Positions 2,166-30,570 of a stretch of 30,570 bases of DNA are shown piece after piece. Location: NCBI GenBank assembly GCA_001820655.1, contig MHQM01000025.1, positions 1-30,570 on the forward strand, in the 5' to 3' direction. This stretch comes from Candidatus Sungbacteria bacterium RIFCSPHIGHO2_02_FULL_52_23. Lineage in GTDB: Bacteria; Patescibacteriota; Minisyncoccia; Sungbacterales; HO2-52-23. The notes under the pieces were generated by a model that was not told the DNA's origin, ran no database searches, and saw only the letters and a list, made by a program, of their open reading frames with translations. A program made the translations under genes and the position numbers. Numbering within the stretch: the stretch's first letter is position 1; every line of letters begins with the position of its first letter.

Positions 2166-3032
2166 ATGAATATCATCCAGATCTACAAACGCTTTCCTGC
2201 CCAAAAAGATTGCCTTGCGCATTTAGAAGCCGTCCGGTGGAAAGAGAGCATCGTCTGCCCCTATTGTAGCTCAAAGAGGATTACCTCTATGGTAAAGGAG
2301 CATCGGCATCACTGCAATGCCTGTAATACTTCTTTCGGCGTTACGGTACACACTATTTTTCATAAAACAAAACTTGATCTGCAAAAGTGGTTTTTAGCTA
2401 TCTCTCTGGTGTTAAACGCCAAAAAGGGTGTCAGTGCGCGGCAACTGGCGCGAGACATTGAAGTGAACAAAAATACAGCGTGGTTTGTACTTATGCGTAT
2501 ACGAAAGGCCATGCGCGAAGATGGCGACTTGCTTGAAGGTATTGTAGAGGCGTATGAAACGTATGTGGGCGGTAAAAATCGCAACAAACACAACGATAAG
2601 AAAACAAAGGGCGGACAAGGACGAAGTACTAAAGACAAGACGCCCGTGTTCGGGCTCGTTAAGAGAGGAGGTAAGGTACATGCCCAAAAAGTCAGTAGAG
2701 TCAGCGCAAGTACGCTCCAGTATCTTATCAGGCAGAACGTGAAGAAAGGATCGCATATTATGACAGATGAGTGGGGTGCGTATTTCGGTCTTGAAAAGCG
2801 AGATTATCAGCATACGACAGTGAATCATGGTACAGGTCAGTATGTAATTGGGGACGCACATACGAATACCATAGAGAGCTTTTGGGCGCTTCTGAAACGT
2901 GGGATTATGGGACAGTATCATCACGTTAGCGCAAAGTATCTGGACCGCTATGTGGACGAGTTTTGTTTCCGACACAATAACCGAGGAAATGACGACATAT
3001 TTGCGTTGTGTATTGAAAAGAGCGTTACATAG
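2166..3032 (+). CDS. IS1595-family (ISXO2-like) DDE transposase, first catalytic Asp substituted
   Basis: N-terminal Zn ribbon CPYC..CNAC, HKTKLDLQKWF, VEAYETYVGG (canonical VEADETY), MTDEWGAY, HTNTIESFW, YLDRYVDEFCFRHN. Confidence 0.93.
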   Translation: MNIIQIYKRFPAQKDCLAHLEAVRWKESIVCPYCSSKRITSMVKEHRHHCNACNTSFGVTVHTIFHKTKLDLQKWFLAISLVLNAKKGVSARQLARDIEVNKNTAWFVLMRIRKAMREDGDLLEGIVEAYETYVGGKNRNKHNDKKTKGGQGRSTKDKTPVFGLVKRGGKVHAQKVSRVSASTLQYLIRQNVKKGSHIMTDEWGAYFGLEKRDYQHTTVNHGTGQYVIGDAHTNTIESFWALLKRGIMGQYHHVSAKYLDRYVDEFCFRHNNRGNDDIFALCIEKSVT

Positions 3033-3069: not shown

Positions 3070-3933
3070 ATGGAGAAAAATATACCTAAAGCATGGGGAA
3101 GCGGACCAATAACCCTTAACGGAGTGGAAATACACTGTGCCGTTCTTGAAGATGGAACTCCTATTTTGAATAAGGGAAGGATGATGAAGGCATTGGGACG
3201 TGCGTGGAGAGGGAAAAGTAGAAGCGATAAACCTACTTTCATTGGAGCGATAAACTTGCAACCTTTCATCAGGCCTGAATTGGGGGAGTTACTCAAGGGG
3301 GTTAAATTTTTTGATGGCGGACGCCTTGCAACAGGATATGATGCAAAGATACTGCCTATGATTTGCCGTGTGTATAGGGACGCGGAACGGGCAGATGTCC
3401 TAACACCCAATCAATTACCAACAGCGCGAGTTTGCGAAACGATGGCAGATGCTTTCTCGGCAGTCGGCATTACTGCTCTGATCTATGAACAACTCGGATA
3501 CGAGAAATTCAAGCATCCCGAGGCGTTCAAGATGCTCATTGAAAGTTATCTTGAGGCAGAAGTCCGCAAGTGGATGAAGGAATTTCCCGATGAATTGTTT
3601 TATCAAATGGACCGGATATACGGTAATCAACCAACTACTTCCCGAAATAGACCTCAGTATTACGCCAAGTTTATACGAAAGTATATCTACGAGCCATTTG
3701 AAAAAGGTGAGGTATTAAAACTACTTGACGCGAGAAATCCCCAAAACGAAAAAGGGACGAGAAAATATCGTCATCATTCACTTACCAGTGAAAAGGTAGG
3801 ATTGCCAGCACTCCGTTCTCAAATCTGGCAAGTTATAGCCACGCTTAAAATATCCGCCAATAAAACAAAGTACGAAAATAATTATGCTCGGATGATGGGG
3901 CAAGCATACCAAGCCGACTTATGGGATAGCTAA
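3070..3933 (+). CDS. P63C-domain protein (IS cargo)
   Basis: C-terminal KWMKEFPDELFYQMDRIYG...RPQYYAKFIRKYIYEP resembles the phage P63C domain; N-terminal I.CAVLEDG motif. Confidence 0.75.
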   Translation: MEKNIPKAWGSGPITLNGVEIHCAVLEDGTPILNKGRMMKALGRAWRGKSRSDKPTFIGAINLQPFIRPELGELLKGVKFFDGGRLATGYDAKILPMICRVYRDAERADVLTPNQLPTARVCETMADAFSAVGITALIYEQLGYEKFKHPEAFKMLIESYLEAEVRKWMKEFPDELFYQMDRIYGNQPTTSRNRPQYYAKFIRKYIYEPFEKGEVLKLLDARNPQNEKGTRKYRHHSLTSEKVGLPALRSQIWQVIATLKISANKTKYENNYARMMGQAYQADLWDS

Positions 3934-5866: not shown

Positions 5867-6065
5867 AGACCTACTGATTAAATATTATTCACCTCCGATG
5901 TCCAGATTTCGGAGACGGGGCATCCCGCTATGCGGGAACGCTTCGCGTCTGTACTACGACTTTGCAAAAATTACTCAACATATACGCCGTATATGTCTCA
6001 TAATTTTTGCAACACTCGCACGAAATCTGAACATCTCGTAACGAAACTATTTAATCAGTAGGTCT
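5867..6065. mobile_element. MITE-like palindromic element, copy 1 (with a nested 40-bp insert)
   Basis: 18-bp TIR AGACCTACTGATTAAATA (5867-5884 / 6048-6065) flanked by ACC on both sides. The body aligns to the reverse complement of copy 2. Confidence 0.8.
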
Positions 6066-6097
6066 ACCGTTTTAATATGCGACACGAAGCCCAAACG

Positions 6098-8745: not shown

Positions 8746-8753
8746 AAAGGAGG
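8746..8753 (+). promoter_or_regulatory. Strong Shine-Dalgarno site of the cas12 gene
   Basis: AAAGGAGG 6 nt upstream of the GTG start at 8760. Confidence 0.75.
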
Positions 8754-8759
8754 CGCATC

Positions 8760-11327
8760 GTGGACAACGCGAATAAGCCCAGTACCAAATCCTTGGTCAA
8801 CACGACTCGCATCAGCGATCACTTTGGGGTAACTCCCGGGCAGGTCACGCGCGTATTCTCTTTTGGCATAATACCGACAAAGAGACAATACGCCATTATA
8901 GAACGGTGGTTTGCCGCGGTAGAGGCCGCGCGTGAGCGACTCTATGGAATGCTCTATGCGCATTTCCAAGAAAATCCCCCTGCCTACCTGAAAGAAAAAT
9001 TTTCGTACGAGACATTTTTCAAAGGCAGACCCGTACTTAACGGCCTCCGTGATATTGATCCCACGATCATGACATCTGCCGTTTTTACGGCACTACGGCA
9101 CAAGGCCGAAGGCGCGATGGCCGCATTCCACACCAACCACCGACGGCTTTTTGAGGAAGCCCGGAAGAAAATGCGGGAATACGCCGAATGCCTGAAGGCC
9201 AATGAGGCATTGCTCCGGGGTGCGGCGGACATAGATTGGGACAAAATTGTCAACGCCCTGCGTACCCGCCTCAATACCTGTCTGGCACCCGAGTACGATG
9301 CGGTGATTGCGGATTTTGGCGCACTGTGCGCATTCCGGGCGCTCATTGCAGAAACAAACGCTCTAAAAGGCGCGTACAACCACGCGCTCAATCAGATGCT
9401 TCCCGCTCTTGTGAAAGTGGATGAGCCGGAAGAAGCCGAGGAGTCGCCCCGTCTCCGATTCTTCAATGGGCGGATCAACGACCTTCCGAAATTTCCCGTT
9501 GCCGAGCGCGAGACGCCGCCGGATACCGAGACGATCATCCGGCAACTGGAAGATATGGCGCGGGTCATACCGGACACTGCCGAAATCCTCGGCTATATCC
9601 ATCGCATAAGGCATAAAGCCGCGCGCCGGAAGCCCGGAAGCGCCGTACCGCTACCCCAACGCGTCGCTCTCTACTGTGCGATCCGCATGGAAAGGAATCC
9701 CGAAGAAGATCCGTCAACGGTCGCCGGGCATTTCCTCGGCGAAATTGATCGGGTATGCGAAAAGCGCCGTCAAGGACTTGTCCGCACGCCTTTTGACAGC
9801 CAGATCAGGGCAAGATACATGGATATCATCTCTTTTCGCGCGACGCTCGCGCATCCTGACCGGTGGACCGAGATCCAGTTCCTCCGGAGCAATGCGGCAA
9901 GCAGAAGAGTACGCGCCGAGACAATATCGGCCCCGTTTGAAGGGTTTTCATGGACGAGCAACCGGACAAATCCCGCGCCTCAGTACGGCATGGCGCTTGC
10001 CAAAGACGCTAATGCTCCGGCCGATGCCCCGGAGTTGTGTATCTGTCTTTCTCCATCATCTGCCGCATTCTCTGTCAGAGAAAAAGGAGGAGATTTGATC
10101 TATATGAGACCGACCGGCGGCAGACGAGGCAAAGACAATCCGGGCAAAGAGATCACCTGGGTACCCGGATCTTTTGACGAGTACCCCGCATCCGGTGTAG
10201 CACTGAAACTCCGCCTTTATTTCGGCAGATCACAGGCGCGCAGAATGCTCACCAATAAAACGTGGGGCCTCTTGTCGGATAATCCGCGCGTATTCGCCGC
10301 CAACGCCGAGCTGGTGGGAAAAAAAAGAAATCCCCAAGACCGGTGGAAGTTATTCTTCCATATGGTAATCAGCGGACCTCCTCCGGTGGAGTATCTGGAT
10401 TTCTCCTCCGATGTGCGTTCCCGGGCCCGAACCGTCATCGGGATAAACCGCGGCGAGGTCAATCCGCTTGCCTATGCCGTGGTGTCTGTAGAGGATGGCC
10501 AAGTGCTTGAGGAGGGTCTTCTCGGCAAAAAAGAGTACATAGACCAGTTGATAGAGACCAGACGCCGGATCAGCGAGTACCAATCCCGCGAACAAACCCC
10601 GCCCCGCGATTTACGCCAGAGGGTCCGGCATCTGCAGGATACGGTTTTGGGAAGCGCCCGGGCAAAGATCCATTCGCTGATCGCATTCTGGAAGGGTATC
10701 CTCGCGATAGAACGGCTGGATGACCAGTTCCATGGCAGGGAGCAAAAGATTATTCCCAAAAAGACCTACCTTGCCAATAAAACGGGCTTTATGAACGCGT
10801 TGAGTTTTTCCGGCGCGGTCCGCGTTGACAAAAAAGGCAACCCATGGGGAGGTATGATAGAGATTTATCCGGGCGGCATTTCCCGCACCTGCACACAGTG
10901 CGGAACCGTCTGGCTTGCGAGGCGACCGAAAAATCCCGGACACCGCGACGCCATGGTGGTCATTCCCGATATCGTGGATGATGCGGCCGCAACGGGGTTT
11001 GACAACGTGGATTGCGATGCAGGCACTGTGGATTACGGGGAACTTTTTACGCTCAGTAGAGAGTGGGTCCGGCTGACTCCGCGTTATAGTCGCGTCATGC
11101 GGGGGACATTGGGAGACCTTGAACGGGCGATCCGGCAAGGAGATGATCGCAAGAGCAGACAAATGCTCGAGCTTGCGCTTGAGCCGCAACCGCAATGGGG
11201 GCAGTTTTTTTGCCACCGATGCGGATTCAACGGACAGTCCGACGTGCTGGCCGCGACCAATCTGGCGCGGCGCGCCATATCTTTGATCAGGCGCCTGCCG
11301 GATACTGATACTCCCCCAACCCCTTGA
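8760..11327 (+). CDS. Type V CRISPR effector, CasX/Cas12e-like, 855 aa, RuvC-I D>N (probably nuclease-dead)
   Basis: C-terminal split RuvC: VIGINRGEVNP (N563; CasX has IG(V/I)DRGENIP), LAIERL (E651), SRTCTQCG...FFCHRCG Zn fingers, QSDVLAATNLARR (D828). A CRISPR array lies 213 bp downstream. Confidence 0.88.
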   Translation: MDNANKPSTKSLVNTTRISDHFGVTPGQVTRVFSFGIIPTKRQYAIIERWFAAVEAARERLYGMLYAHFQENPPAYLKEKFSYETFFKGRPVLNGLRDIDPTIMTSAVFTALRHKAEGAMAAFHTNHRRLFEEARKKMREYAECLKANEALLRGAADIDWDKIVNALRTRLNTCLAPEYDAVIADFGALCAFRALIAETNALKGAYNHALNQMLPALVKVDEPEEAEESPRLRFFNGRINDLPKFPVAERETPPDTETIIRQLEDMARVIPDTAEILGYIHRIRHKAARRKPGSAVPLPQRVALYCAIRMERNPEEDPSTVAGHFLGEIDRVCEKRRQGLVRTPFDSQIRARYMDIISFRATLAHPDRWTEIQFLRSNAASRRVRAETISAPFEGFSWTSNRTNPAPQYGMALAKDANAPADAPELCICLSPSSAAFSVREKGGDLIYMRPTGGRRGKDNPGKEITWVPGSFDEYPASGVALKLRLYFGRSQARRMLTNKTWGLLSDNPRVFAANAELVGKKRNPQDRWKLFFHMVISGPPPVEYLDFSSDVRSRARTVIGINRGEVNPLAYAVVSVEDGQVLEEGLLGKKEYIDQLIETRRRISEYQSREQTPPRDLRQRVRHLQDTVLGSARAKIHSLIAFWKGILAIERLDDQFHGREQKIIPKKTYLANKTGFMNALSFSGAVRVDKKGNPWGGMIEIYPGGISRTCTQCGTVWLARRPKNPGHRDAMVVIPDIVDDAAATGFDNVDCDAGTVDYGELFTLSREWVRLTPRYSRVMRGTLGDLERAIRQGDDRKSRQMLELALEPQPQWGQFFCHRCGFNGQSDVLAATNLARRAISLIRRLPDTDTPPTP

Positions 11328-11352
11328 CAAGATAGCGGGATTAAGCTATCTT
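11324..11352 (+). promoter_or_regulatory. Promoter overlapping the cas12 stop codon, containing an inverted repeat
   Basis: TTGACA (11324-11329), N17, TATCTT (11347-11352). The inverted repeat AAGATAGC/GCTATCTT (11329-11336 / 11345-11352) overlaps both boxes. Confidence 0.65.
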
Positions 11353-11358
11353 CTTCCC

Positions 11359-11515
11359 CAAGCTCCTTATATAAGTAGTATCCATATAGAGGGGCCCATT
11401 GGCCGCTTTAAAATCGTTTCAACGGCCAATCCCCCGACCGGATTACCGGTCGGGTATAAAAGCTTCCTCTCATGAAAAGAGCCCTGTCTTCCTCGCGGAG
11501 ATAGGGCTCAAAAAA
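11359..11515 (+). ncRNA. Candidate tracr/scout-like RNA
   Basis: Non-coding stretch between effector and array with three hairpins (11398-11430, 8 bp; 11433-11454, 9 bp perfect; 11479-11509, 13 bp with 2 G-U) and short repeat-complementary segments. Boundaries and strand are inferred. Confidence 0.5.
11479..11509 (-). terminator. Possible intrinsic terminator for minus-strand transcription
   Basis: 13-bp stem followed on the minus strand by TTTT. On the plus strand it is followed by an A-run, so it is not a plus-strand terminator. Confidence 0.4.
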
Positions 11516-11540
11516 TTTAATGCTTGATGATCATATTCTC

Positions 11541-11764
11541 GTTTACACACTCCCTCTCATAGGGTGGCTCTTAGACGGGGCTGCTCATTACGGCTGTTGG
11601 GTTTACACACTCCCTCTCATGAGGTAACTCTTGGACTAGGCGTATCCAAGGCAACCTCGCATGTTTTTACATACCCCCTCTCATGGGATGGCTCTTAGAC
11701 GACCTCTTGGCTTCGGGGAACCTCCTGTTTACACACTCCCTCTCATGGGGGATGGCTCTTAGAC
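11541..11764. CRISPR. Degenerate CRISPR mini-array: 4 repeats (36, 36, 36, 38 nt), 3 spacers (24, 28, 26 nt)
   Basis: R1 11541-11576 GTTTACACACTCCCTCTCATAGGGTGGCTCTTAGAC; R2 11601-11636; R3 11665-11700; R4 11727-11764. Spacers 11577-11600, 11637-11664, 11701-11726. Orientation not resolved. Confidence 0.92.
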
Positions 11765-11893
11765 AGCGCCTTGAGCCTATCAAAGAGCTTTTGGGAATGT
11801 AGCGCAAAAGAATATTGAGCGCAAGAGACGCATAAAGACCAACATTTCCAGAAAGTTGGCAACGCAATGATTTATAAATCCAAATCTGCACGG

Positions 11894-13267: not shown

Positions 13268-15175
13268 CTATTCCACGACATACCAGTCTTTTGGACCCGT
13301 CGCCGTATCATCATGCAGTTCCGTGGTAAACGCGTCAATACGCGCCTTGATGTCCTGTCCGGTAAACATGTCCTTGCCCGTAAAGTCCGCCTCATGCACC
13401 AGTGTCAGAGGTTTGCGGATATCGCTTGGCGCAGGGACGATGGACACCTGAAACGCGACAGTGCGCGACTGCGTCAGCACGCCTGTGCCTGCCGCCAGTC
13501 GCCCGAGACGCCAGCGCACTTCGCTCGCCGATTCGCTATAGGAGATATCGGCATCGCCCGGATACGTAGCACTCTCCCATCTGACATTGGGCGGCAGGCG
13601 CGCGACAAGTTCGCCGTTTTCTATCGCATTGGTAAAATTCCTTGCTTCCCAGATGATCACATATGTCGTCTTCTCGCCCTGCCGCGGCGGCAGAGGCCCA
13701 CTGTTTGCAATGGGAGACGCGCGAAAAACAGCGCGTCCGGCAAACAAAGCGATCGTCGCCACTTTCAACTGCGCCGTATCATCGGGGCTTAGTTTTGCGC
13801 CCGCAAGCTCCTGTGGCAAATTGGGGGTACTGATGGATGCATGCGCCCGGAGCGTCAGGTTGGTATCTGCCGATGTGCGCATCGTGGGACGCTTTTGCGT
13901 GGGAAACGAAAGGCGCAATTCTCCCGACTGTCCGGGTAAGACCTGGCGCAAAGCTTCAGTCCCGCCCGGGCCCCATATGACAGCCCCCATACGCGCATCA
14001 AAGGCTCCGCCGCTTGCGACAGTCATACTCGCCAAGTCCGCAATACTACCCTCAATGCGCGCCTGCACCGATACGTTTCGTACGGTGACCGCACTGCGGT
14101 TTGCGTACTCCACGATAACCTCCGCATTCTCGCCCGGAGTCAATACTCCGTCGCGCATGCCGTTGATCCGCGTCGTCAGCAGAAACGGAGAGGACGAAAG
14201 CGTCACTTCCTCGGTGGCCTCCCGCCATAGTCTCCATTCTTTCGTACGCTCATCAAAAAATCCCAGGCCCGCGCGAAGCGCATTTACCTCGCCGCCCATA
14301 CCGTCAAAAGCGCCCATGATGACAATCTTGTCTTCTTTGCCAGGCTCAAGCGTACCTATTTTCCAAAATAACTCTCCCACTGCGGCCTTGGGCGTAGCGC
14401 TCTCCATCTTAAACCCCGGAGGGAGATCTATTCGGAGCCATACGTCGCCAAACGGAATTTGGGAGCGCGAACTGTACCGCAGAGTCATCTCCGTCTTCTG
14501 CCGCGGATCTATGCGCGGCAAGGTTTCCCAAAAAAGTGCCAAGGGAACGCTCGCGATCGTAAATTTCTTTGACGAAGTGAACGAAAAACGCGCGCTCAAG
14601 CGCTCCGGGCGATACAAGAGAGTCACTTCCACATTTTGTCCCTCACGCTCGGCGCCAAAGAATCTCACCGTGATCTCTTTTGTCTGAACCTCGCCTGCGG
14701 CAATAGTCCCGATATGCTCAACCATGCGCGGCGTACCCAGCGGCGCAAATCCCACATCGTTTTTTATGAGCGTCCCTGCGGGGACGCCGATCGCAAGCTG
14801 TACGTCTTCTAAAGCGGCCTTGGAAGCATTGCGTATCGTCACCGGAATAGTCACCGCCTCCCCCGCTTCAATAAAATCACGGCCGCCGATCACGATCTGG
14901 GCCTCCTGCCGGTCGGCGCCAAGATAGAGATATACAAATACTCCGGCTCCGGCAAGAAAAATAGCCGCCGCCCCGATCAGAAGAAACAGGCTCGTACGAA
15001 AAGAAAACATGGGTCTAGCAGGCAAAGATTCGCCTTCCTCGTCTTTCTCGCTCCAGTCGCTCGGCACGCGCCGCCCCAAGGGCGTCAGCGGAAACCGCCG
15101 CTTTCTACGGCCGGTAAGCTCCGTGTCTTCCGCGGCACCATACAATCCCTCTTGTAATTCATCAAGCCGTCCCAT
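13268..15175 (-). CDS. Membrane-anchored hypothetical protein with predicted beta-sandwich (DUF11/Ig-like) repeats
   Basis: One TM segment near residues 62-84, then beta-rich repeats (W.IG.L.PG, T..I..R.N, LPPNVRW). No catalytic motif recognised. Confidence 0.7.
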   Translation of the reverse strand: MGRLDELQEGLYGAAEDTELTGRRKRRFPLTPLGRRVPSDWSEKDEEGESLPARPMFSFRTSLFLLIGAAAIFLAGAGVFVYLYLGADRQEAQIVIGGRDFIEAGEAVTIPVTIRNASKAALEDVQLAIGVPAGTLIKNDVGFAPLGTPRMVEHIGTIAAGEVQTKEITVRFFGAEREGQNVEVTLLYRPERLSARFSFTSSKKFTIASVPLALFWETLPRIDPRQKTEMTLRYSSRSQIPFGDVWLRIDLPPGFKMESATPKAAVGELFWKIGTLEPGKEDKIVIMGAFDGMGGEVNALRAGLGFFDERTKEWRLWREATEEVTLSSSPFLLTTRINGMRDGVLTPGENAEVIVEYANRSAVTVRNVSVQARIEGSIADLASMTVASGGAFDARMGAVIWGPGGTEALRQVLPGQSGELRLSFPTQKRPTMRTSADTNLTLRAHASISTPNLPQELAGAKLSPDDTAQLKVATIALFAGRAVFRASPIANSGPLPPRQGEKTTYVIIWEARNFTNAIENGELVARLPPNVRWESATYPGDADISYSESASEVRWRLGRLAAGTGVLTQSRTVAFQVSIVPAPSDIRKPLTLVHEADFTGKDMFTGQDIKARIDAFTTELHDDTATGPKDWYVVE

Positions 15176-16367: not shown

Positions 16368-19300
16368 TTATGCCGCTAAAATCCCGATCCACAGCTTCTC
16401 GCCGTCAAGATCGGACTCGCGCTCAAGCTTGTATACTTTTTTGCCGCCTGCTTTCAGTTCCGCGGCATTGGTATCTTTTTTGATCTCCCGCTCCCATCTT
16501 ACCAGAATCGCGGCAATACGCTCACTACCCATGATCTGGCATCGCACTTTTTCACCCGGCTTCATACCAAGCTCGCGACGCATATCCTGTACCGTCCGCA
16601 CAAATTCCCGCACGATTCCTTCCTCTTTGAGTTCCGGCGTCATTACAATGTCCAGTTTTATCTCCTCGCCGAAAGCAATCTCTTTGACATTTACCTCATC
16701 CTTTATCAACCGTAGCACCTCTTCCTTCCCCCTTAATTCTTGATTCTTAATTCTCAATTCTCGCAGGGGCTGACGCACTTTGATCCCCGCTTCCGCCCGC
16801 AATTTCAAAGCCGCCGCGACAATAGCACGCACAGCTTCCATATCTTTTATAATTCCTGATTCCCCTGCCCCCACACCAAAATTTGGTGTGGGGGTGAACT
16901 TCTTGATTCCTGCTTCTATTTTAGGCCACGGCCGCAGATGCACACTTTCCTCTTTCAATCCCATTTTTTTGCGCAATCCCCGATAGACGGCCTCGCTGAT
17001 AAACGGCGCAAAGGGCGCAGATAGTTCCGCAAGCGTCAGTAGTACTTGTGCCATCACCGCCGCGGCTTCATTTTTTTCCTGCGCATTTTCCGGATGCTGG
17101 AATCTGCGACGCGATCGACGCACATACCACTGCGAAAAGTCATTCACCGCAAACTCATCAATCACCCGCGCAGCACCCACCAGATCATACTTATCCAACT
17201 TATCTGTCACATGCCCGACAAGCAGATTCAGGTCTGCCATGATCCATTTATCCAATACATTCGTATTTTTCGTTTTTCGTTTTTCGTTTTTCACTTTCTT
17301 TACGTACGTATCAAAAAACACAAACGTATTCCAAAGCGTTGCCACAAATCCGCGCGAGCGCAGAGCCACGTCTTTTTCATCAAACCTTTTCGGCTCGCCC
17401 GGCCCATTGATCGTAAAAAAATACCACCGGAGCGCATCCACACCGTATTTATCCATCATCTCCTGCGGGCTTACGACATTGCCTTTGGACTTGGACATCT
17501 TTTGTCCTTTGGCATCCAGTACATGCCCAAGCGAGATCACGTTTTTGTATGGCGCTCCGCGCCCCAGCAGAGTGGCAACCGCAAGCATGCTATAAAACCA
17601 TCCGCGCGTCTGATCCACGGCTTCCGAAATGTAATCCGCTGGAAACGCCAACCCGTCATTGCGAGGACGCAAAACGCCCGTAACAACCCTATGAGATCGG
17701 GTCTCATAGGGTAAAAACGGATAATGATTTTGAGCAAATGGCATGGCTCCCGAGTCAAACCACACGTCAGCAACTTCCGGCGTACGGCGCATGACGCCGC
17801 TACAGGAAACGCAATCAAACTTTATCTCATCCACATACGGCCGATGCAGATCCACTTCTTGTGCCGCATCATGCGGCAGTTTGCCCGAGCGTTTTTTTAA
17901 TTCATCGCGCGAGCCGATCACCTCAATTTCGCCACACTTGTTGCACTTCCATATGGGCAAGGGCGTCCCCCAATACCGCTCGCGCGAAAAGCACCAGTCG
18001 CGCACGTCTTTGAGAAACTCGCCAAATCTCCCGTGCTTCAAGTGCTCTGGCGTCCAATTGGTGGTCTCATTATTTGCAAGCAGTTCCTTTTTTACGGCAG
18101 TCGTCTTCACCCACCAGGCCTTGCGCGCATAATACAAAAGAGGCGTATCGCACCGCCAGCAATGCGGATATTCATGCGGGTACGGCTCTTGATGGAAAAT
18201 CTTATCACCGAGTATTCGGATTATTTCCGCTTCTGTTTTTTGTTTATCTTCTCGCGTCGCGATAGACCACCCACTTAAACTTTCCACCTCTTTAACAAAA
18301 TGTCCTGTCTCGTCCACCGTATGAAATTTCGGCAATCCGACTTGCTGTCCCAGACGATAGTCATCCTCTCCGTACATCACCGCGGTATGCACCACGCCTG
18401 TGCCGTCGTTGGCACTTACGAAATCGGCAGGATATATTTTATACGCCGTTTTTGAATTTCTGAATTCCGGCACATCAAAAAGCGGTTTATATTTTTTTCC
18501 GATTACATCCTCTCCCCTAAAAATCTCTACAATGTCGTACACTTTACCTCGCCATAAATAAGAATTTTCGCCGGGAATATCTCTCATCTCTATAGCAGTT
18601 TTGAAAAAAATGTCTTTCGCGATAATGTGCATCTCTGAAAGTGGACGCGGTCGTGATTCTTCTCCCTCTGCGACATGATCAAACTCTCGGCTCCACTTTA
18701 CTTTCAGATAGTCAAGTGTTGGCTTCACCGCCAATGCGACATTTCCCGGTAGCGTCCACGGCGTCGTGGTCCATGCCAAAATATAGGTTTTGTCGTCCGT
18801 GACAAAATCGCCGATTTTTTGATTCGGCTCCAACTCGAACTTCACATACACCGCCGTATCTTCCACTTCCTTATATCCAAGTCCGACTTCATGCGACGAA
18901 AGCCCTGTCTGACAACGTGGGCACCACGGCACGACTTTGAAATCCTCGTACAGCAATCCTTTTTTGTAAAATTCCTTGATGATCCACCAGAGCGTCTCTA
19001 TATATGACGTCTCGTACGTAATGTAGGGGTTTTTGAGATCAATCCAAAATCCCATCCGTTTTGTCAGGCGCTCCCACTCTTCTTTATATTCCCATACCGA
19101 GCGCTTGGCATCCGCGTTGAATCTCGCAATGCCGTAGTTTTCAATATCGTGCTTGGTCTTAAATCCGAGCTTTTTCTCTACCTGTATTTCTACCGGAAGC
19201 CCATGCGTATCCCATCCCGCGCGGCGCGGCACGTCAAATCCCCGCATGCTTTTGTAGCGCAGTACCGCATCCTTAAAAGCCCGCGCTTCCACATGGTGAA

Positions 19301-19463
19301 TACCTGGCATGCCGTTTGCGGTCGGCGGCCCCTCATAAAAGACAAAGGGCTTTTTGCCTTTGTTTTTTTTGAGGGATTTTTCAAAAACTTTTTTCTCCTC
19401 CCAGAACTTCAGAATCTCCTCCTCCCGCTCCGGAACATTCAATTGTCTATTGTGCTCGTACAT
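16368..19463 (-). CDS. ileS: Isoleucyl-tRNA synthetase (type 2, eukaryote/archaea-like)
   Basis: FYEGPPTANGMPGIHH, AWTTTPWTLPGN, DWCFSRERYWGTPLP, DQTRGWFY, KMSKS. Confidence 0.96.
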   Translation of the reverse strand: MYEHNRQLNVPEREEEILKFWEEKKVFEKSLKKNKGKKPFVFYEGPPTANGMPGIHHVEARAFKDAVLRYKSMRGFDVPRRAGWDTHGLPVEIQVEKKLGFKTKHDIENYGIARFNADAKRSVWEYKEEWERLTKRMGFWIDLKNPYITYETSYIETLWWIIKEFYKKGLLYEDFKVVPWCPRCQTGLSSHEVGLGYKEVEDTAVYVKFELEPNQKIGDFVTDDKTYILAWTTTPWTLPGNVALAVKPTLDYLKVKWSREFDHVAEGEESRPRPLSEMHIIAKDIFFKTAIEMRDIPGENSYLWRGKVYDIVEIFRGEDVIGKKYKPLFDVPEFRNSKTAYKIYPADFVSANDGTGVVHTAVMYGEDDYRLGQQVGLPKFHTVDETGHFVKEVESLSGWSIATREDKQKTEAEIIRILGDKIFHQEPYPHEYPHCWRCDTPLLYYARKAWWVKTTAVKKELLANNETTNWTPEHLKHGRFGEFLKDVRDWCFSRERYWGTPLPIWKCNKCGEIEVIGSRDELKKRSGKLPHDAAQEVDLHRPYVDEIKFDCVSCSGVMRRTPEVADVWFDSGAMPFAQNHYPFLPYETRSHRVVTGVLRPRNDGLAFPADYISEAVDQTRGWFYSMLAVATLLGRGAPYKNVISLGHVLDAKGQKMSKSKGNVVSPQEMMDKYGVDALRWYFFTINGPGEPKRFDEKDVALRSRGFVATLWNTFVFFDTYVKKVKNEKRKTKNTNVLDKWIMADLNLLVGHVTDKLDKYDLVGAARVIDEFAVNDFSQWYVRRSRRRFQHPENAQEKNEAAAVMAQVLLTLAELSAPFAPFISEAVYRGLRKKMGLKEESVHLRPWPKIEAGIKKFTPTPNFGVGAGESGIIKDMEAVRAIVAAALKLRAEAGIKVRQPLRELRIKNQELRGKEEVLRLIKDEVNVKEIAFGEEIKLDIVMTPELKEEGIVREFVRTVQDMRRELGMKPGEKVRCQIMGSERIAAILVRWEREIKKDTNAAELKAGGKKVYKLERESDLDGEKLWIGILAA
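16868..16894. repeat. 13-bp perfect palindrome in frame inside ileS
   Basis: CCCCCACACCAAA-A-TTTGGTGTGGGGG, encoding TPTPNFGVG. Confidence 0.75.
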
Positions 19464-19557: not shown

Positions 19558-20103
19558 TTAAGATACTCTACCGATTGTCCCTTGCTCGCGGACGCTAAAG
19601 ATGTGTACCTTGCCCGCCAACGCCAAATCATCCAACAACGTAATAAAACTCACAGGGAGAGGACAATCACCTATCCACACACTTTTTTGAAAATGGCGAA
19701 AGCCGCACGTGATCAGCTCCGCACGCACGGCAGTTCGTTTTTGCCGTTCCCGTTCGGGGATATCAAAAATAACAAGTCGTGTAATTCCGTCACTTACGTT
19801 ATTTTCTATATTTGCTTCCACCTGATCTACCCGCGCTCTTCCCGCAGGCGACAAACGCCATTTCGCGTTTTTTCTGCCACCCATTCGGACAATCAATCCT
19901 TCTCGTTGCAAGCGCCACAAAATCGTCGATACCGTATGACGAGTAATTTTTCTTGACCGTTCCAAACCGAGCAGAGGACGCCACATATTGGCATAAGAAT
20001 ACTTTCTTGGGAAAAATGCGCCCAACGTCGCTTCACCAAGACCTCCTAAAATCTCAAGCGTCGCACGACCAATAGAGTATTTCTTTTCCTCCTGGTTTTT
20101 CAT
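19558..20103 (-). CDS. PaaX-like transcriptional regulator (wHTH plus Cas2-like domain)
   Basis: TILWRLQREGLI...WRLSPAG (wHTH) and RLVIFDIPERERQKR..VR.EL...GF...QKSVWI (PaaX central, Cas2-like domain). Confidence 0.8.
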   Translation of the reverse strand: MKNQEEKKYSIGRATLEILGGLGEATLGAFFPRKYSYANMWRPLLGLERSRKITRHTVSTILWRLQREGLIVRMGGRKNAKWRLSPAGRARVDQVEANIENNVSDGITRLVIFDIPERERQKRTAVRAELITCGFRHFQKSVWIGDCPLPVSFITLLDDLALAGKVHIFSVREQGTIGRVS

Positions 20104-21904: not shown

Positions 21905-22351
21905 ATGTCAGACCTTGCCGTCAACCGCCGCGCTACTTTTGACTACGAAATCATTGAAACATATGAGGCTGGTATCGCATTGCAGGGTTTTGAAGTAAAA
22001 GCCGTCAAAGCAGGGCGCATGAATCTGGCAGGCACGTTTGCCATCATCCGCGGGGATGAGGCATGGCTCGTCAATGCGTCCATTTCCCCATACCAGAGCG
22101 GCAATACGCCCGAAAAGTATGACCCCACGCGGCCGCGGCGGCTCCTCCTGCACAAAAAAGAGATCAAAGAGCTGATCGGAGCTACAGCCGAAAAAGGATT
22201 GACAATTGTGCCTTTAAAGGTGTACGCTGTACGCAATCGGATCAAGATCGCAATCGCTCTTGCACGACACAAAAAGAAAGCCGACAAACGCGAGACGATC
22301 AAGCGGCGTGAATCCGATAGAGAGATCCAACGAACTTTGAAATGGGGATGA
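21905..22351 (+). CDS. smpB: SsrA-binding protein
   Basis: NRRATFDYEIIETYEAGIALQGFEVKA, RPRRLLLHKKEI, KKKADKRETIKRRE. True start is ATG 21905, not the track's 21440. Confidence 0.96.
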   Translation: MSDLAVNRRATFDYEIIETYEAGIALQGFEVKAVKAGRMNLAGTFAIIRGDEAWLVNASISPYQSGNTPEKYDPTRPRRLLLHKKEIKELIGATAEKGLTIVPLKVYAVRNRIKIAIALARHKKKADKRETIKRRESDREIQRTLKWG

Positions 22352-22741
22352 CTGGCTTCGACGGGGATGAAAACGCCTGCAATCGGGCCGAGGACGCAGA
22401 GACACTCGTAAAACCCTCTGCAAACCAATACGTGCAAACGTATCTGAAGGCGCTGTAGCGGTTTCCGCCGACTTGTTCGGTGGTGCCGTGCGCGCCCCCG
22501 CATTTGCCTAATTTTTAGATAAATGCCATCCGTCTTTGGCGTTCGGGCTGAAGATTCACGGGTGTCATACTCCCGAACTTGATTCGCGGCATTTCGGGGC
22601 CGCGCGTGACACCTACCGGAACCCGGGACGGACTTTTTTGCTGAAATTCTATTTCCGCTCCGGCACAACAATTTCAGCTACGCCCGTAGCGATTGCCCGC
22701 GCGATTATTTTCGGACGAGGGTTCGATTCCCTCCATCTCCA
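22344..22741 (+). ncRNA. ssrA: tmRNA
   Basis: 5' GGGGATGACTGGCTTCGAC pairs with 3' CATCTCC-A; T-arm GAGGGTTCGATTCCCTC; tag ORF at 22434-22511; CCA not encoded. Confidence 0.93.
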
Positions 22742-22768
22742 TATCATACTTCTGTTTCTCGTTTAAAA

Positions 22769-27236: not shown

Positions 27237-28358
27237 TTATTGCGCGATTCGCACAAGCTCCGCGATGACGCCTGCGATAATCAGGGTATAGATGCCATAG
27301 CTCATCCACGCAGGTATGATGCCGCGGCCATGGTGCTCCTGCCTGATCTTACGCCCCATAAGGAGAAACAGCAGTCCGTCTACGCCAAACGCCATGACAC
27401 CCACGATACTGATGATCGCGATGAAGTTTTGAAATCCGGCAAGGTATAAAAGAAACGGTATGGCAGATGCCGTAAGCCATGCGGCCCGGCGTGGGACAGC
27501 AAGATCAAGCGAGAGCATGGCCTGAAAATTGGCCGAAAGCGCGATAAAAGACGTGAGCACCGCGAGGAACCCTGCCATACTCGCAAAAAGCACGACATTG
27601 CCCCCGACAAGCTGTCCGAGGCCCGCGATCGCATCGGTGCTTGTAGCGCCTCCCGTCACCCCCACGACCGCGTACGCAAAAAAGAAATACAGGACAGCCG
27701 GGATCAAAGAGCCTGCGACAATCGCGGCGCGTACTTTTGCTCTGTCGCGCCCGAGGACGGTTACGAGATCCGGTATGACGGACGCGCCCGAGAGCGCAAA
27801 AAGCAAGACGCCGTATGGCACGAAAAGATTGCTCCAGTGGATGCCCGCAAGACGCAAGGGCGACGCATGGGGTAGTAGCAGAAAAGAGAGTCCCGCAACA
27901 AAAGCGATCTCAAAGACCGTCAGCACTCCATTGATCGCGGCTTCTTTTTTGAGCGGGAAAAACGTCACGAGAGCGACAAAACACGCAAGACCTGACGCGA
28001 GCAAAAAGCCGTCGCCTGCAAGGGCTACCCGCGACACAACCGTCTCCAAAAACACGGAGCCGATGATGAGATACGCCAAAAGCGTGCCGACTGTCCCAAA
28101 AAGTGCTGACGCCCATGACACCAGTGCCGCGCGGCGCCCGAGATGCATGCGGGCGTAGCCCGGCATGCGGTGGAAATGCGGCGTTACAAGCACGATCTCG
28201 CCGTACAGGAGATGCAAGACGAGCATGACGCCCGAAATCACGACAAGCTCTGCCGCCCCGAGCCAAAATCCCGTTTGCGCAAACGAAAAAGGGATGGCAA
28301 ACATCCCCGCTCCGATGATCATCCCCGCAAGCACGAAGACGGCTTTGAAAAAACGCAT
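27237..28358 (-). CDS. Aromatic amino-acid (Trp/Tyr) permease-family transporter
   Basis: N-terminal G.IIGAGMFAIPF, PYGVLLFALSG.S.IP, LTSFIA; about 11 TM segments. Confidence 0.8.
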   Translation of the reverse strand: MRFFKAVFVLAGMIIGAGMFAIPFSFAQTGFWLGAAELVVISGVMLVLHLLYGEIVLVTPHFHRMPGYARMHLGRRAALVSWASALFGTVGTLLAYLIIGSVFLETVVSRVALAGDGFLLASGLACFVALVTFFPLKKEAAINGVLTVFEIAFVAGLSFLLLPHASPLRLAGIHWSNLFVPYGVLLFALSGASVIPDLVTVLGRDRAKVRAAIVAGSLIPAVLYFFFAYAVVGVTGGATSTDAIAGLGQLVGGNVVLFASMAGFLAVLTSFIALSANFQAMLSLDLAVPRRAAWLTASAIPFLLYLAGFQNFIAIISIVGVMAFGVDGLLFLLMGRKIRQEHHGRGIIPAWMSYGIYTLIIAGVIAELVRIAQ

Positions 28359-28359
28359 A

Positions 28360-28518
28360 AGACCTACTGATTAAATAGTTTCGTAGCGAGATGTTCAGAT
28401 TTCGTGCGAGACGAAGCAAAAATTATTCAGCATATACGGTGTATATGTTGAATAATTTTTGCAAAGTCGTAGCCGAAATCTGAACATCGGAGTAGAATAG
28501 TATTTAATCAGTAGGTCT
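28360..28518. mobile_element. MITE-like palindromic element, copy 2 (159 bp)
   Basis: Same 18-bp TIR (28360-28377 / 28501-28518), flanked by ATA on both sides, in opposite orientation to copy 1. Confidence 0.8.
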
Positions 28519-28541
28519 ATAGGTAAAACTGGTACTCCGTC

Positions 28542-29114
28542 CTAATCCTCAATCTTGTCCTTGGCGACGGCTTCCATGACTTTTGCCAGAAGTTTTTTCG
28601 GATCCGAATCAAAAACCACTTTCCCCGTGCCGCGATGCGCTTTTGCGAGCAGCTCTTCAAGCTCGTCTGCTATGCCGCCCGTGCCCGTCAGCACGCCTAT
28701 TGGTTTTTTGTCTTCAAATGCGATGGTAAATTCGTTCAACGTACCCATCCGTCCGCATGTGACGATCACGGCATCAGACGAGCGCGTCAGCAGGAGATTG
28801 CGCCCCGCGTAGCCGAAGCCCGTATAGATGATGATGTCGTGATTATCCAGAGGAAGCTGGTATTTTTTTACATGCTCCACTTCGGACGAAGCCGGGGAGA
28901 GTCCGATAACAAATCCGTTTTCTTCTTTGGCGCCCAGAGCGCCCCACAAGGGCGCGCCGGTTGTAGCCCCCGTCACCAAAACAGCACCTTGGCGCACGAT
29001 CTCGCGGCCAAGTTCTTTGGTCTTTTCAAGCGCATCGGGAGCGCAGTGGCCGGTTTCGGCAGCACCCGAAATGCAGATTTTATATTTGAGATGGATATGC
29101 CGTCCGTCTTTCAT
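28542..29114 (-). CDS. LOG-family protein (TIGR00725-like)
   Basis: ISGAAE, LVTGATTG, VIGLSP, GFGYAGRNLLL.RSSDAVI..GRMGTLNEF. Confidence 0.85.
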   Translation of the reverse strand: MKDGRHIHLKYKICISGAAETGHCAPDALEKTKELGREIVRQGAVLVTGATTGAPLWGALGAKEENGFVIGLSPASSEVEHVKKYQLPLDNHDIIIYTGFGYAGRNLLLTRSSDAVIVTCGRMGTLNEFTIAFEDKKPIGVLTGTGGIADELEELLAKAHRGTGKVVFDSDPKKLLAKVMEAVAKDKIED

Positions 29115-29134
29115 AGTGTCTTTAATACTATAGA

Positions 29135-30466
29135 TTATAGCGTGAACTTCTCCCCGCGCCTAGGGGCGGTGGCGGCTACACCCAGGCGATCCGCAATCTC
29201 CTGCTTGAAGCCAAGCGCTTGTTTCTCCTCGCCCTGTACGACAAATACGTGCTTGAGAGTATCGCGCTTCGGGTCTACAAAAGCATGCAGTTGCGCGTTG
29301 TCGGCATGCGCGGAAAATCCTCCGATCTGCCGCACTTCCGCGCGCACGGGAATCTCCTCATCCATGATCCGCACTTTTTCCGCTCCATCCACCAGCCGCC
29401 TGCCGAGCGATCCTGCAGCCTGATATCCGATGATGAGCAGGACGCTCTTGGGGTCCCCGAGATAGCGGCGCGCGTGATGCAGGATCCGCCCGCCCGTCAT
29501 CATGCCCGAGCCTGCCACGATGACTTTGGGTTGGCGCACGTCATTGATCGTCTTGGATTCGTCCACCGTCAGTGTGAAATGCAGTTCCTTGGAGCGAAAA
29601 AGATGCGGGTGCGCGCGGTACAGCGCCTTGATCTCTTCTTTGTACGCCTCCGGATGGCGCTCGTATACTTCGGTGATCCGTATCGCAAGCGGCGAATCCA
29701 CGTATACGGGCATCTGCGGGATTCTTTTCTGGTGCAGCATTTCGTTGAGCAGGAAAATAATATCCTGCGTGCGCTCGGTCGCAAACGCGGGTATCAGGAG
29801 CGTGCCGCCGCGAAATGCGACATCCTCTACCGCGCGCTCAAGCTTGAGCACCCGCTCCTCTGCGTCTTCATGGAGGCGCGTGCCGTATGCCGATTCGGTG
29901 ATCAGATAATCCAGATCGCCGATCTCGTCGGGCGGCGGCAGTAGGACAGACGGCACGTTGCCCAAATCTCCGGTAAACAGTATGCGCTTGCCTCCGGTCT
30001 CAATATACGCCATGGCAGATCCCAAAATATGCCCCGCATCAAAAAGCGTGAGCTCGGCGTCTTTGATCGTACGGCTGGCGCGGTACGTCATGTCCTCCCA
30101 AAGACCAAATGTCTGCTCAATATCCTTGGCGCTGAAGAGCGCATTCTCTTCGCGCTCGGCCAGATGTAGCGCGTCCTCCAATAGCACGCGCGCGAGCTCG
30201 CGAGTCGCGGAGGTCGCGAGGATCACGCCACGGAAACCCTCATGTACCAGCTTCGGGAGCCTCCCGATATGGTCAATATGTGCGTGCGTGATCACGACCG
30301 CATCAGGCGAGGACGGGTCAAAGCCGAAAGGCTCAAAGTTCATATCCTCAATCTCGCGCGAGCCCTGAAACATCCCGCAATCCACGAGAATTTTTGCGCC
30401 GCCCGTCTCAAGCAGATGACATGCGCCGGTTACTTCTTGTGCACCTCCATGAAAAGAAATTTGCAT
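29135..30466 (-). CDS. MBL-fold metallo-hydrolase, beta-CASP RNA-processing type
   Basis: GGAQEVTGACHL, LVDCG, HAHIDH, AGHILGS, TGDLG, ESAYG, FSAHAD. Confidence 0.92.
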   Translation of the reverse strand: MQISFHGGAQEVTGACHLLETGGAKILVDCGMFQGSREIEDMNFEPFGFDPSSPDAVVITHAHIDHIGRLPKLVHEGFRGVILATSATRELARVLLEDALHLAEREENALFSAKDIEQTFGLWEDMTYRASRTIKDAELTLFDAGHILGSAMAYIETGGKRILFTGDLGNVPSVLLPPPDEIGDLDYLITESAYGTRLHEDAEERVLKLERAVEDVAFRGGTLLIPAFATERTQDIIFLLNEMLHQKRIPQMPVYVDSPLAIRITEVYERHPEAYKEEIKALYRAHPHLFRSKELHFTLTVDESKTINDVRQPKVIVAGSGMMTGGRILHHARRYLGDPKSVLLIIGYQAAGSLGRRLVDGAEKVRIMDEEIPVRAEVRQIGGFSAHADNAQLHAFVDPKRDTLKHVFVVQGEEKQALGFKQEIADRLGVAATAPRRGEKFTL

Positions 30467-30477
30467 AGCTAGATATT

Positions 30478-30570
30478 AGACCTACTGCGTAAAGATTGTT
30501 CTGCTGCAATTTCCAGATTTCGGCTACGACTTTGAAAAAATTATTCAACATATACGCCGTATATGCCTCA
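30478..30570. mobile_element. MITE-like element, copy 3 (cut by the window end)
   Basis: AGACCTACTG start followed by CCAGATTTCGGCTACGACTTTG..AAAATTATTCAACATATACGCCGTATATG, colinear with copy 1 but without its 40-bp insert. Confidence 0.75.

Follow-up and report, generated by a model that had tools for sequence, protein, structure and literature searches.

A Cas12e-family effector with an asparagine in RuvC-I beside a tracrRNA-like element and a small degenerate CRISPR array in a Candidatus Sungbacteria genome

A Cas12e effector lacking the first RuvC aspartate

The DNA analysed here, a 30,570-nt stretch of contig MHQM01000025.1 (hereafter the window), comes from a groundwater bacterium, Candidatus Sungbacteria bacterium RIFCSPHIGHO2_02_FULL_52_23. 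It carries a gene of the cas12e/casX family followed by a trans-activating CRISPR RNA (tracrRNA)-like element, a small CRISPR (clustered regularly interspaced short palindromic repeat) array and an array leader, which together make up a type V-E (Cas12e/CasX) CRISPR locus without the cas4-cas1-cas2 module (Table 1). The encoded effector has an Asn at the first catalytic position of its RuvC domain. An original prediction, made from the sequence alone, had described this substitution and proposed an RNA-guided repressor or roadblock; its coordinates took in the gene alone, and it passed over the parts at 11324-11893, namely the tracrRNA-like element, the array, which is small and degenerate, and the leader.

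The window protein is a Cas12e/CasX both by sequence profile and by fold. It matched the NCBIfam Cas12e/CasX profile NF045604 with 726.5 bits (E 5e-218, cut-off 200) over profile positions 2-886 of 886. The only other NCBIfam match was a sub-threshold one to Cas12c, and Pfam gave sub-threshold RuvC_1 and Cas12f1-like TNB matches only. An AlphaFold2 model built with 20 family sequences as input had a mean predicted local distance difference test score of 82. Comparison of this model with the PDB using Foldseek returned Cas12e/CasX structures as all of the best seven entries (VemCas12e, PlmCasX, LesCas12e and DpbCasX; template modelling (TM) scores 0.53-0.69), the leading ones being 8xyc, 7way, 8y2i and 6ny2 (E 1e-23 to 1e-16); Cas12a ranked after Cas12e, at a lower TM score normalised by target length. 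In a phmmer search against solved structures, the best match was dVemCas12e (8xyc, 880-residue chain; E 3e-5). The model contains the domains expected of the Cas12e fold (OBD, helical I/II, RuvC and a zinc-ribbon TSL). Its N-terminal half is helical and has no beta-rich NTSB insert, so that the effector resembles published NTSB-lacking Cas12e such as VemCas12e (PMC11685505). The prediction of a CasX-like effector encoded by an otherwise undamaged frame was thus borne out. The protein had also been singled out as about 130 aa shorter than CasX, a size that is in itself ordinary, given that NTSB-lacking Cas12e enzymes are known (PMC11685505). The sequence is already public: it is present in NCBI nr, is scored highly by the NCBI CasX profile and has a cluster member labelled Ca. 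Sungbacteria. CasX patent filings presumably also include the protein and its four repeats.

HMMER, run exhaustively against 1.84 billion representatives, retrieved 31 relatives, and 20 sequences were aligned: the window protein, an orthologue that is 90% identical to it (P0006) and 18 homologues from outside this lineage. Column 563 is occupied by Asp in all 18 outside homologues and by Asn only in the window protein and P0006. The predicted Asp-to-Asn change is therefore real and unique to the lineage, shared by no homologue other than the close orthologue. The RuvC-I motif reads VIGINRGEVNP in the window and VIGIDRGEVNP in the Asp-type homologue P0009, the two differing solely in the D/N position, and the engineered Ala of dVemCas12e ('igiArge') falls exactly at column 563 in the phmmer alignment to 8xyc. 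E651, D828 and the zinc-ribbon cysteines C711/C714 and C818/C821, all of which had been reported as intact, are invariant columns in the 20-sequence alignment. The effector triad is Asn563-Glu651-Asp828, and the complete Asp-Glu-Asp set that defines the RuvC site of Cas12e is lacking, which makes the protein a non-canonical member of the family. A misaligned motif or a substitute Asp nearby was ruled out; no lineage-specific change at a conserved column yields an acidic residue.

In nucleases with an RNase H fold, the first carboxylate bridges both catalytic metals, and an Asn at this position (RuvC D7N, RNase HI D10N, integrase D64N) abolishes catalysis and leaves substrate binding intact. 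Laboratory dCas12e is made by altering the RuvC-I Asp residue. The window protein has lost further residues that are otherwise conserved. Of the 54 columns with a conservation of at least 85% among the other homologues, it departs from 13 (12 if one disregards the start codon GTG, rendered as V in place of M), as compared with 0-7 departures in the other full-length members. The changed columns include A827S beside the RuvC-III Asp, as well as positions 707 and 810, where an invariant Thr and an invariant Arg have been replaced by Ile and Gln. R810 stands 18 residues before the RuvC-III Asp, the same gap as that between Arg904 and Asp922 of PlmCas12e, and a simulation study assigned Arg904 the task of holding the target-strand backbone at the cleavage site (PMC11547573).

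The orthologue P0006 belongs to a sister species of the same genus (GCA_964646295.1), in which the effector gene lies at a syntenic place (locus L002), with a gene for an M16 peptidase on one side and one for a class II aminoacyl-tRNA synthetase on the other. The codon is AAC there too, indicating that the Asn predates the split of the two species. An identical 855-aa protein was found on contigs of at least 8 separate ENA/Logan assemblies; together with the shared codon of the orthologue, this rules out a sequencing error. Between the two species, the effector gene shows 0.21 synonymous (dS) and 0.048 non-synonymous (dN) substitutions per site (dN/dS 0.23; 111.8 synonymous versus 91.2 non-synonymous changes). 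The neighbouring housekeeping genes of the same species pair have a dS of 0.2-0.38 and a dN/dS of 0.03-0.12. The effector has thus been under purifying selection since the split, somewhat relaxed relative to core genes. The suggestion that the Asn might be a recent mutation is refuted by its presence before a split at dS 0.2-0.38 in a gene under such selection.

The altered lineage appears considerably deeper than these two species, since a 153-aa fragment from another metagenome (P0014), only 57% identical over that region, carries I707, Q810 and S827 and keeps D828. No further fragment of the Asn type was found beyond P0014; the pattern used to scan GTDB included the Asp and was hence blind to Asn variants. 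In a maximum-likelihood tree, the window lineage joins the Asp-type proteins P0009, P0010 and P0011 (support 95/98), with a stem branch of 1.65 substitutions per site versus 0.5-0.9 in these sisters. Relaxation specific to RuvC was considered and is unsupported: dN/dS between the two species is 0.30-0.37 in the C-terminal part and 0.16-0.20 in the N-terminal part, a non-significant trend, and divergence from the sister proteins is even across domains. The effector gene is present in 2 of the 36 genomes of the family. For an empty-site comparison, the flanking synthetase of the two other species of the genus was found to be only 60% identical and located on short contigs.

A tracrRNA-like element and a degenerate array next to the effector gene

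By its sequence, the element directly downstream of the effector gene belongs to a tracrRNA family, of which the window appears to keep a full copy. It is predicted to fold into two hairpins, a single-stranded stretch made of AUAAAAG and repeat-like sequence, and a third hairpin. The sole base change between the two species in these 129 nt turns a G-U pair into a G-C pair, whereas the flanks have diverged: the 58 nt upstream (11336-11393) are about 17% different between the window and L002, and the downstream bases cannot be aligned. In four Asp-type loci (L019, L014, L015 and L016), the stretch directly 3' of the effector gene is laid out alike: an 8-bp stem capped by a U-rich loop, another hairpin, AUAAAAG and finally a system-specific anti-repeat. 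RNAalifold detected compensatory changes in 9 of 15 predicted pairs across the five loci, and in L014 and L015 a plus-strand terminator follows the tracrRNA-like element. As far as sequence can tell, the window therefore has the anti-repeat-bearing tracrRNA that accompanies Cas12e effectors. Both hexamers of the candidate promoter are kept in the sister species; they are a consensus match only, and the promoter scan as a whole was not enriched over shuffled sequences. A second anti-repeat at 11380-11392, required by a model with both RNAs on the same strand, was ruled out as it is not conserved in L002.

The array is the only one of its kind in the genome. Its repeats number 4 in the window and 6 in other populations. 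The sister species has 26 of them in the same place (L002:12786-14367), where no two neighbouring repeats are identical and one unit is truncated (13777-13828). Repeats of this lineage have a mean pairwise identity of 79% (range 59-95%) around three invariant blocks, GTTT, CCTCTCAT and CTTAGAC, unlike those of the Asp-type sister locus L019, whose 14 repeats are identical and separated by spacers of about 34 nt. One spacer is common to both species, with 1 change in 24 nt, which indicates that the array is vertically inherited and turns over slowly. In loci L004-L007, which encode the identical protein, the array (e.g. L004:7115-7280) has two extra, unique spacers at its right end, bordered by the right-most 38-nt repeat (window 11727-11764) in three identical copies. 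Extra spacers between identical repeats are the mark of polarised acquisition beside the leader, and their occurrence in populations with the identical protein implies that spacers were added after the Asn arose. On this leader side, the two species are approximately 96% identical over some 130 nt lying to the right of the array (6 differences).

We infer that the minus strand supplies the crRNA (CRISPR RNA). The anti-repeat GCUUCCUCUCAU has the same sense as the plus-strand repeats and would thus pair only with minus-strand repeat transcripts. The extra spacers at the right end in L004-L007 and the conserved stretch beyond that end agree with this orientation. This orientation leaves an 8-nt repeat tail, GUGUAAAC, like the tail ACUAAAAC of L019, where the anti-repeat and the repeat form a 20-bp duplex and 8 nt of the repeat stay single-stranded next to the spacer. 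Twenty-six of the 29 repeats pair better as plus-strand tracrRNA with minus-strand crRNA (mean -22.4 kcal/mol) than in the opposite arrangement (-19.0 kcal/mol). All 29 keep their pairing to the real anti-repeat, as compared with -9.3 ± 1.8 kcal/mol for shuffled anti-repeats. The commonest repeat variant forms a G-U pair in the former arrangement and a C-A mismatch in the latter. Plain duplex folding of the whole intergenic region had by itself left the strand undecided; the comparison with the sister loci settled it. Read in this way, the array is inverted relative to that of L019 and lies downstream of the synthetase gene in the same direction.

Table 1 Features of the locus (positions are those of the window)
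Feature	Position	Strand	Remark
Shine-Dalgarno AGGAGG	8748-8753	+	6 nt upstream of the effector GTG; read from the sequence
cas12e/casX-family effector gene	8760-11327	+	open frame, 855 aa, GTG start
Asn563 codon AAC, RuvC-I catalytic position	10446-10448	+	Asp in 18/18 other homologues
Ile707 codon	10878-10880	+	Thr in 18/18 other homologues; within the TSxTC motif that precedes the first CxxC
Gln810 codon	11187-11189	+	replaces an Arg invariant in 18/18 homologues
Sigma-70-like TTGACA-17-TATCTT, candidate tracrRNA promoter	11324-11352	+	overlaps the effector stop codon
tracrRNA-like element	11394-11522	+	128/129 identical to L002; same architecture in four Asp-type loci
Hairpin 1 of the element	11398-11405 / 11423-11430	+	predicted fold
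Hairpin 2 of the element	11433-11441 / 11446-11454	+	predicted fold; followed by AUAAAAG linker
Anti-repeat, 12 nt	11462-11473	+	predicted to pair with minus-strand repeats
Hairpin 3 of the element	11479-11491 / 11497-11509	+	predicted fold
CRISPR array	11541-11764	- (inferred)	4 non-identical repeats (36-38 nt) and 3 spacers (24-28 nt)
Repeats of the array	11541-11576, 11601-11636, 11665-11700, 11727-11764
Array leader	11765-11893	-	separates the array from the stop of the class II aminoacyl-tRNA synthetase gene (minus strand)

The effector gene has housekeeping neighbours: aminoacyl-tRNA synthetases, RecO, the M16 peptidase, a transporter, L20 and tmRNA. Pfam annotation of the large open reading frames (ORFs) of the window revealed no cas1, cas2 or cas4 beside the effector. 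A Cas1 profile had no match in either the window genome (695 kb, 88% complete) or that of the sister species (92% complete), and matches to Cas2 and Cas4 profiles were weak and fell in PaaX-like and other non-cas proteins. The Asp-type effectors P0009, P0011, P0012 and P0013 all adjoin cas4-cas1-cas2, a module that is usual in Cas12e loci, not universal (it is absent from the OpbCas12e locus), and missing here. As the original prediction had stated, there are no Tn7-like genes: neither tnsB, tnsC, tniQ nor any other was found by Pfam among all large ORFs across the 30.6-kb window. The genome encodes RNase III, the usual partner in tracrRNA-dependent processing.

Several other features of the window were recorded. 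Its only transposase gene, of the IS1595 family (2166-3032), lies 5.7 kb from the effector and is followed by a gene for a P63C-domain protein (3070-3933). In the syntenic part of the sister genome neither gene is present, and their place is taken by a ParE toxin gene and an adjacent 73-aa ORF (a possible antitoxin). A 181-aa PaaX-like protein (19558-20103, minus strand) has a Cas2-like middle domain (PF20803; weak PF09827), and two further ORFs of this kind elsewhere in the genome (C31 and C34) match the Cas2 profile; none of the three is a CRISPR Cas2 gene. A 635-aa DUF11/CLIPPER-like, probably surface, protein (13268-15175, minus strand) evolves between the species at an effector-like rate (dN/dS 0.26). 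A palindromic intergenic element of 115-200 nt with 18-nt inverted ends, AGACCTACTGATTAAATA ... TATTTAATCAGTAGGTCT, occurs at 5867-6066, 28357-28519 and 30475-30570. It looks like a miniature inverted-repeat transposable element or a repetitive extragenic palindromic (REP)-like repeat, and blastn found well over 40 copies, complete or partial, spread across more than 25 contigs of the 695-kb genome, a remarkable density for a small genome. The tmRNA gene (22344-22744, plus strand) encodes the tag peptide ANVSEGAVAVSADLFGGAVRAPAFA. At 28542-30466 (minus strand), a SLOG-family (LDcluster4) protein is encoded beside a beta-CASP metallo-beta-lactamase RNase-like gene. Finally, a class I aminoacyl-tRNA synthetase (tRNA-synt_1, probably of the isoleucyl type) occupies one 1031-aa frame in the window (16368-19463) and two adjacent ORFs of 497 and 471 aa in the sister genome (L002:18953-21863), which could reflect a gene split, a frameshift or a fault in the assembly.

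A putative non-cutting DNA binder and its alternatives

The effector, the tracrRNA-like element, the array leader and, in every repeat, the core that pairs with the anti-repeat are all preserved by selection. We consider it probable, if only by a modest degree, that the effector has been naturally converted to an RNA-guided protein that binds DNA, cuts it barely or not at all, and acts as a roadblock or silencer. According to this proposal, a plus-strand tracrRNA would be made directly 3' of the effector gene, and its 12-nt anti-repeat would pair with the repeats of a minus-strand pre-crRNA transcribed from the leader, on the opposite side of the array. The duplex may be trimmed by host RNases such as the genome-encoded RNase III. 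The N563/I707/Q810 effector would then take up the guide, locate complementary DNA flanked by a protospacer adjacent motif (PAM) and form an R-loop, and would remain bound, obstructing the target's transcription or replication in the manner of Cas12m. Foreign elements are the most likely targets. The fuller account is, to our mind, evenly poised between right and wrong: a branch of CasX would have become a heritable, non-cutting, tracrRNA-guided DNA binder that lost its adaptation genes, tolerates repeats of about 79% identity that are still functional and occasionally gains a spacer, a natural form of CRISPR interference (CRISPRi) on a Cas12e scaffold in a minimal-genome bacterium of the candidate phyla radiation.

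Several observations weigh against conversion to a binder. The loss of cleavage is argued from homology. E651, D828 and both zinc ribbons are kept, D828 also in the 57% identical fragment P0014; these residues would be needless in a purely structural RuvC, and their retention hints at residual metal-dependent activity. Divergence from the sister proteins is spread evenly over all domains and is not concentrated in RuvC. Hairpin 3 of the tracrRNA-like element leads on the plus strand into a run of A and not of T, which leaves the 3' end of the tracrRNA uncertain. The failure to find Cas1 in either genome (88% and 92% complete) leaves the apparent gain of spacers unexplained. No protospacer or PAM was found in the two species' own genomes, IMG/VR, GenBank phages or JGI metagenomes.

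The retained residues lend themselves to another explanation, namely that the effector is an altered nuclease whose Asn-Glu-Asp site keeps a weak, metal-specific, nicking or RNA-processing activity and gives slow or changed interference. The invariance of E651, D828 and the four zinc cysteines, the presence of D828 in the 57% relative, a RuvC-I strand that is the same around N563 as in the active sisters, and RuvC blocks that have diverged no more than the other domains all speak for such an enzyme. Cas12c and Cas12m, moreover, have a working RuvC that serves pre-crRNA processing without DNA cutting. We nevertheless regard an altered nuclease, the chief alternative to a binder, as rather unlikely: Asn at the carboxylate that bridges both metals is the classic dead mutant, the laboratory dCas12e changes the same residue (8xyc), and T707 and R810, invariant residues of the cleavage site, have been lost as well.

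A domesticated transcription factor, in which fixed and ancient spacers steer the dead effector to host promoters in the manner of TldR, would account for the lack of a detectable Cas1 in both genomes, the vertical inheritance of the array at a syntenic site, the spacer kept across species (1 change in 24 nt), the very slow turnover implied by repeats of 79% mean identity and the position of the locus amid housekeeping genes. The spacers argue against it. The 3 window spacers have no second match of 14 nt or more in their own 88%-complete genome, the 24 spacers of the sister array gave chance-level matches only in their own 92%-complete genome (up to 18 nt at high identity, E > 2), and a blastn-short search of the window genome with 5 spacers of the window lineage and 24 of the sister lineage returned chance matches only. 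The match of a guide to a host promoter that a TldR-type system should show was thus not found, and regulation of host genes by near-full complementarity is unsupported. The spacer content (3-5 versus 24, with one in common) is also unlike a conserved regulon. We think a transcription factor quite improbable. The two halves of the earlier proposal therefore part here: a host-gene repressor finds no support in the 3 + 24 spacers, none of which matches its own genome beyond chance, whereas a roadblock on foreign DNA stays the best guess, though no protospacer was found.

The searches for foreign targets covered several collections. Exact-core scans of IMG/VR with six spacers gave 0 matches, and neither array matched any of 50,697 GenBank phages. 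In JGI metagenomes, one 20-nt spacer core had 4 matches in unrelated coding contexts, about the number expected by chance for a collection of this size according to an estimate that was not computed. The best of them (23/24 nt; L058) lies in an ORF without a Pfam or PHROG match.

It is highly improbable that the locus is a decaying relic, drifting towards a pseudogene without function after the loss of its adaptation genes and catalytic Asp; the missing adaptation genes, the degenerate repeats, the presence of the gene in only 2 of 36 family genomes, the long stem branch and a dN/dS of 0.23 versus 0.03-0.12 in neighbouring housekeeping genes point that way, but the 2.6-kb frame is intact in two species at a dS of about 0.2-0.38 with that same dN/dS, the tracrRNA-like element and the leader are 99% and 96% identical beside a stretch with about 17% differences, the anti-repeat pairing block is kept in every diverged repeat, and unique spacers were gained at the leader end after the Asn arose.

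Significance and comparison with known systems

Should conversion to a DNA binder hold true, the locus would join Cas12k, Cas12m and Cas12c as a further independent example of a type V nuclease that became a binder, and would be the first on a Cas12e scaffold. CasX/Cas12e is an actively engineered genome editor of which every characterised member cuts DNA, and a naturally optimised binding-only CasX could be of use in CRISPRi or in base-editor fusions. The locus also offers a test case for the survival of an array and the gain of spacers where no Cas1 was found, and its heterogeneous yet functional-looking repeats show which positions the Cas12e-tracrRNA complex needs. It raises the questions of how spacers are gained without a detectable Cas1, why the repeats have diverged so strongly and why Glu651 and Asp828 are conserved. 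In the literature, we found no paper that links CasX with Sungbacteria, describes a natural dead Cas12e, notes this Asn or tests the function of the protein, and a natural dead Cas12e is likewise not mentioned in the 2025 CRISPR classification.

In its proposed mode of action the effector is similar to Cas12m or Cas12c and to engineered dCasX. The RuvC triad of Cas12m is intact and serves crRNA processing, and no tracrRNA is needed; the triad of the window protein is broken and a tracrRNA-like element is present. The likeness to type V-M is thus confined to the proposed mode of action, Cas12m being a different and smaller protein family. RNA-guided DNA binding by Cas12m is described as giving protection or silencing without cleavage (PMC11013384).

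The locus is neither a Cas12k system (type V-K CRISPR-associated transposon) nor a TldR. Cas12k likewise has a naturally inactivated RuvC and uses a tracrRNA, whereas the window has no Tn7-like genes and its effector belongs to the Cas12e family. TldR is a RuvC-dead derivative of TnpB, kept by selection and presumed to be a binder, which uses a single guide of the omega-RNA type and no CRISPR array. The window has instead the full Cas12e architecture with a tracrRNA-like element and an array, and no self-target was found. In dVemCas12e (PDB 8xyc) the same residue has been altered, to Ala; the change in the window is natural, has been kept under selection and is accompanied by further active-site changes.

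The closest relatives are the NTSB-lacking Cas12e effectors VemCas12e, LesCas12e and OpbCas12e (PMC11685505), which share the family, the fold, the domain order and the zinc-ribbon TSL with the window protein. The OpbCas12e locus, like the window, has no adaptation genes and carries its tracrRNA gene between the effector and the array (PMC11685505). Dependence on a tracrRNA, which for the window is suggested by sequence, and the 8-nt single-stranded repeat tail beside the spacer are likewise common to both. The eight characterised Cas12e (DpbCas12e, PlmCas12e and six newer orthologues) all interfere with plasmids (PMC11685505). The window effector differs from Cas12e by its RuvC-I Asn and by the replaced Thr707 and Arg810, and its array differs by heterogeneous repeats (79%, versus identical ones in L019), spacers of 24-28 nt versus about 34 nt, and an inverted orientation relative to the tracrRNA.

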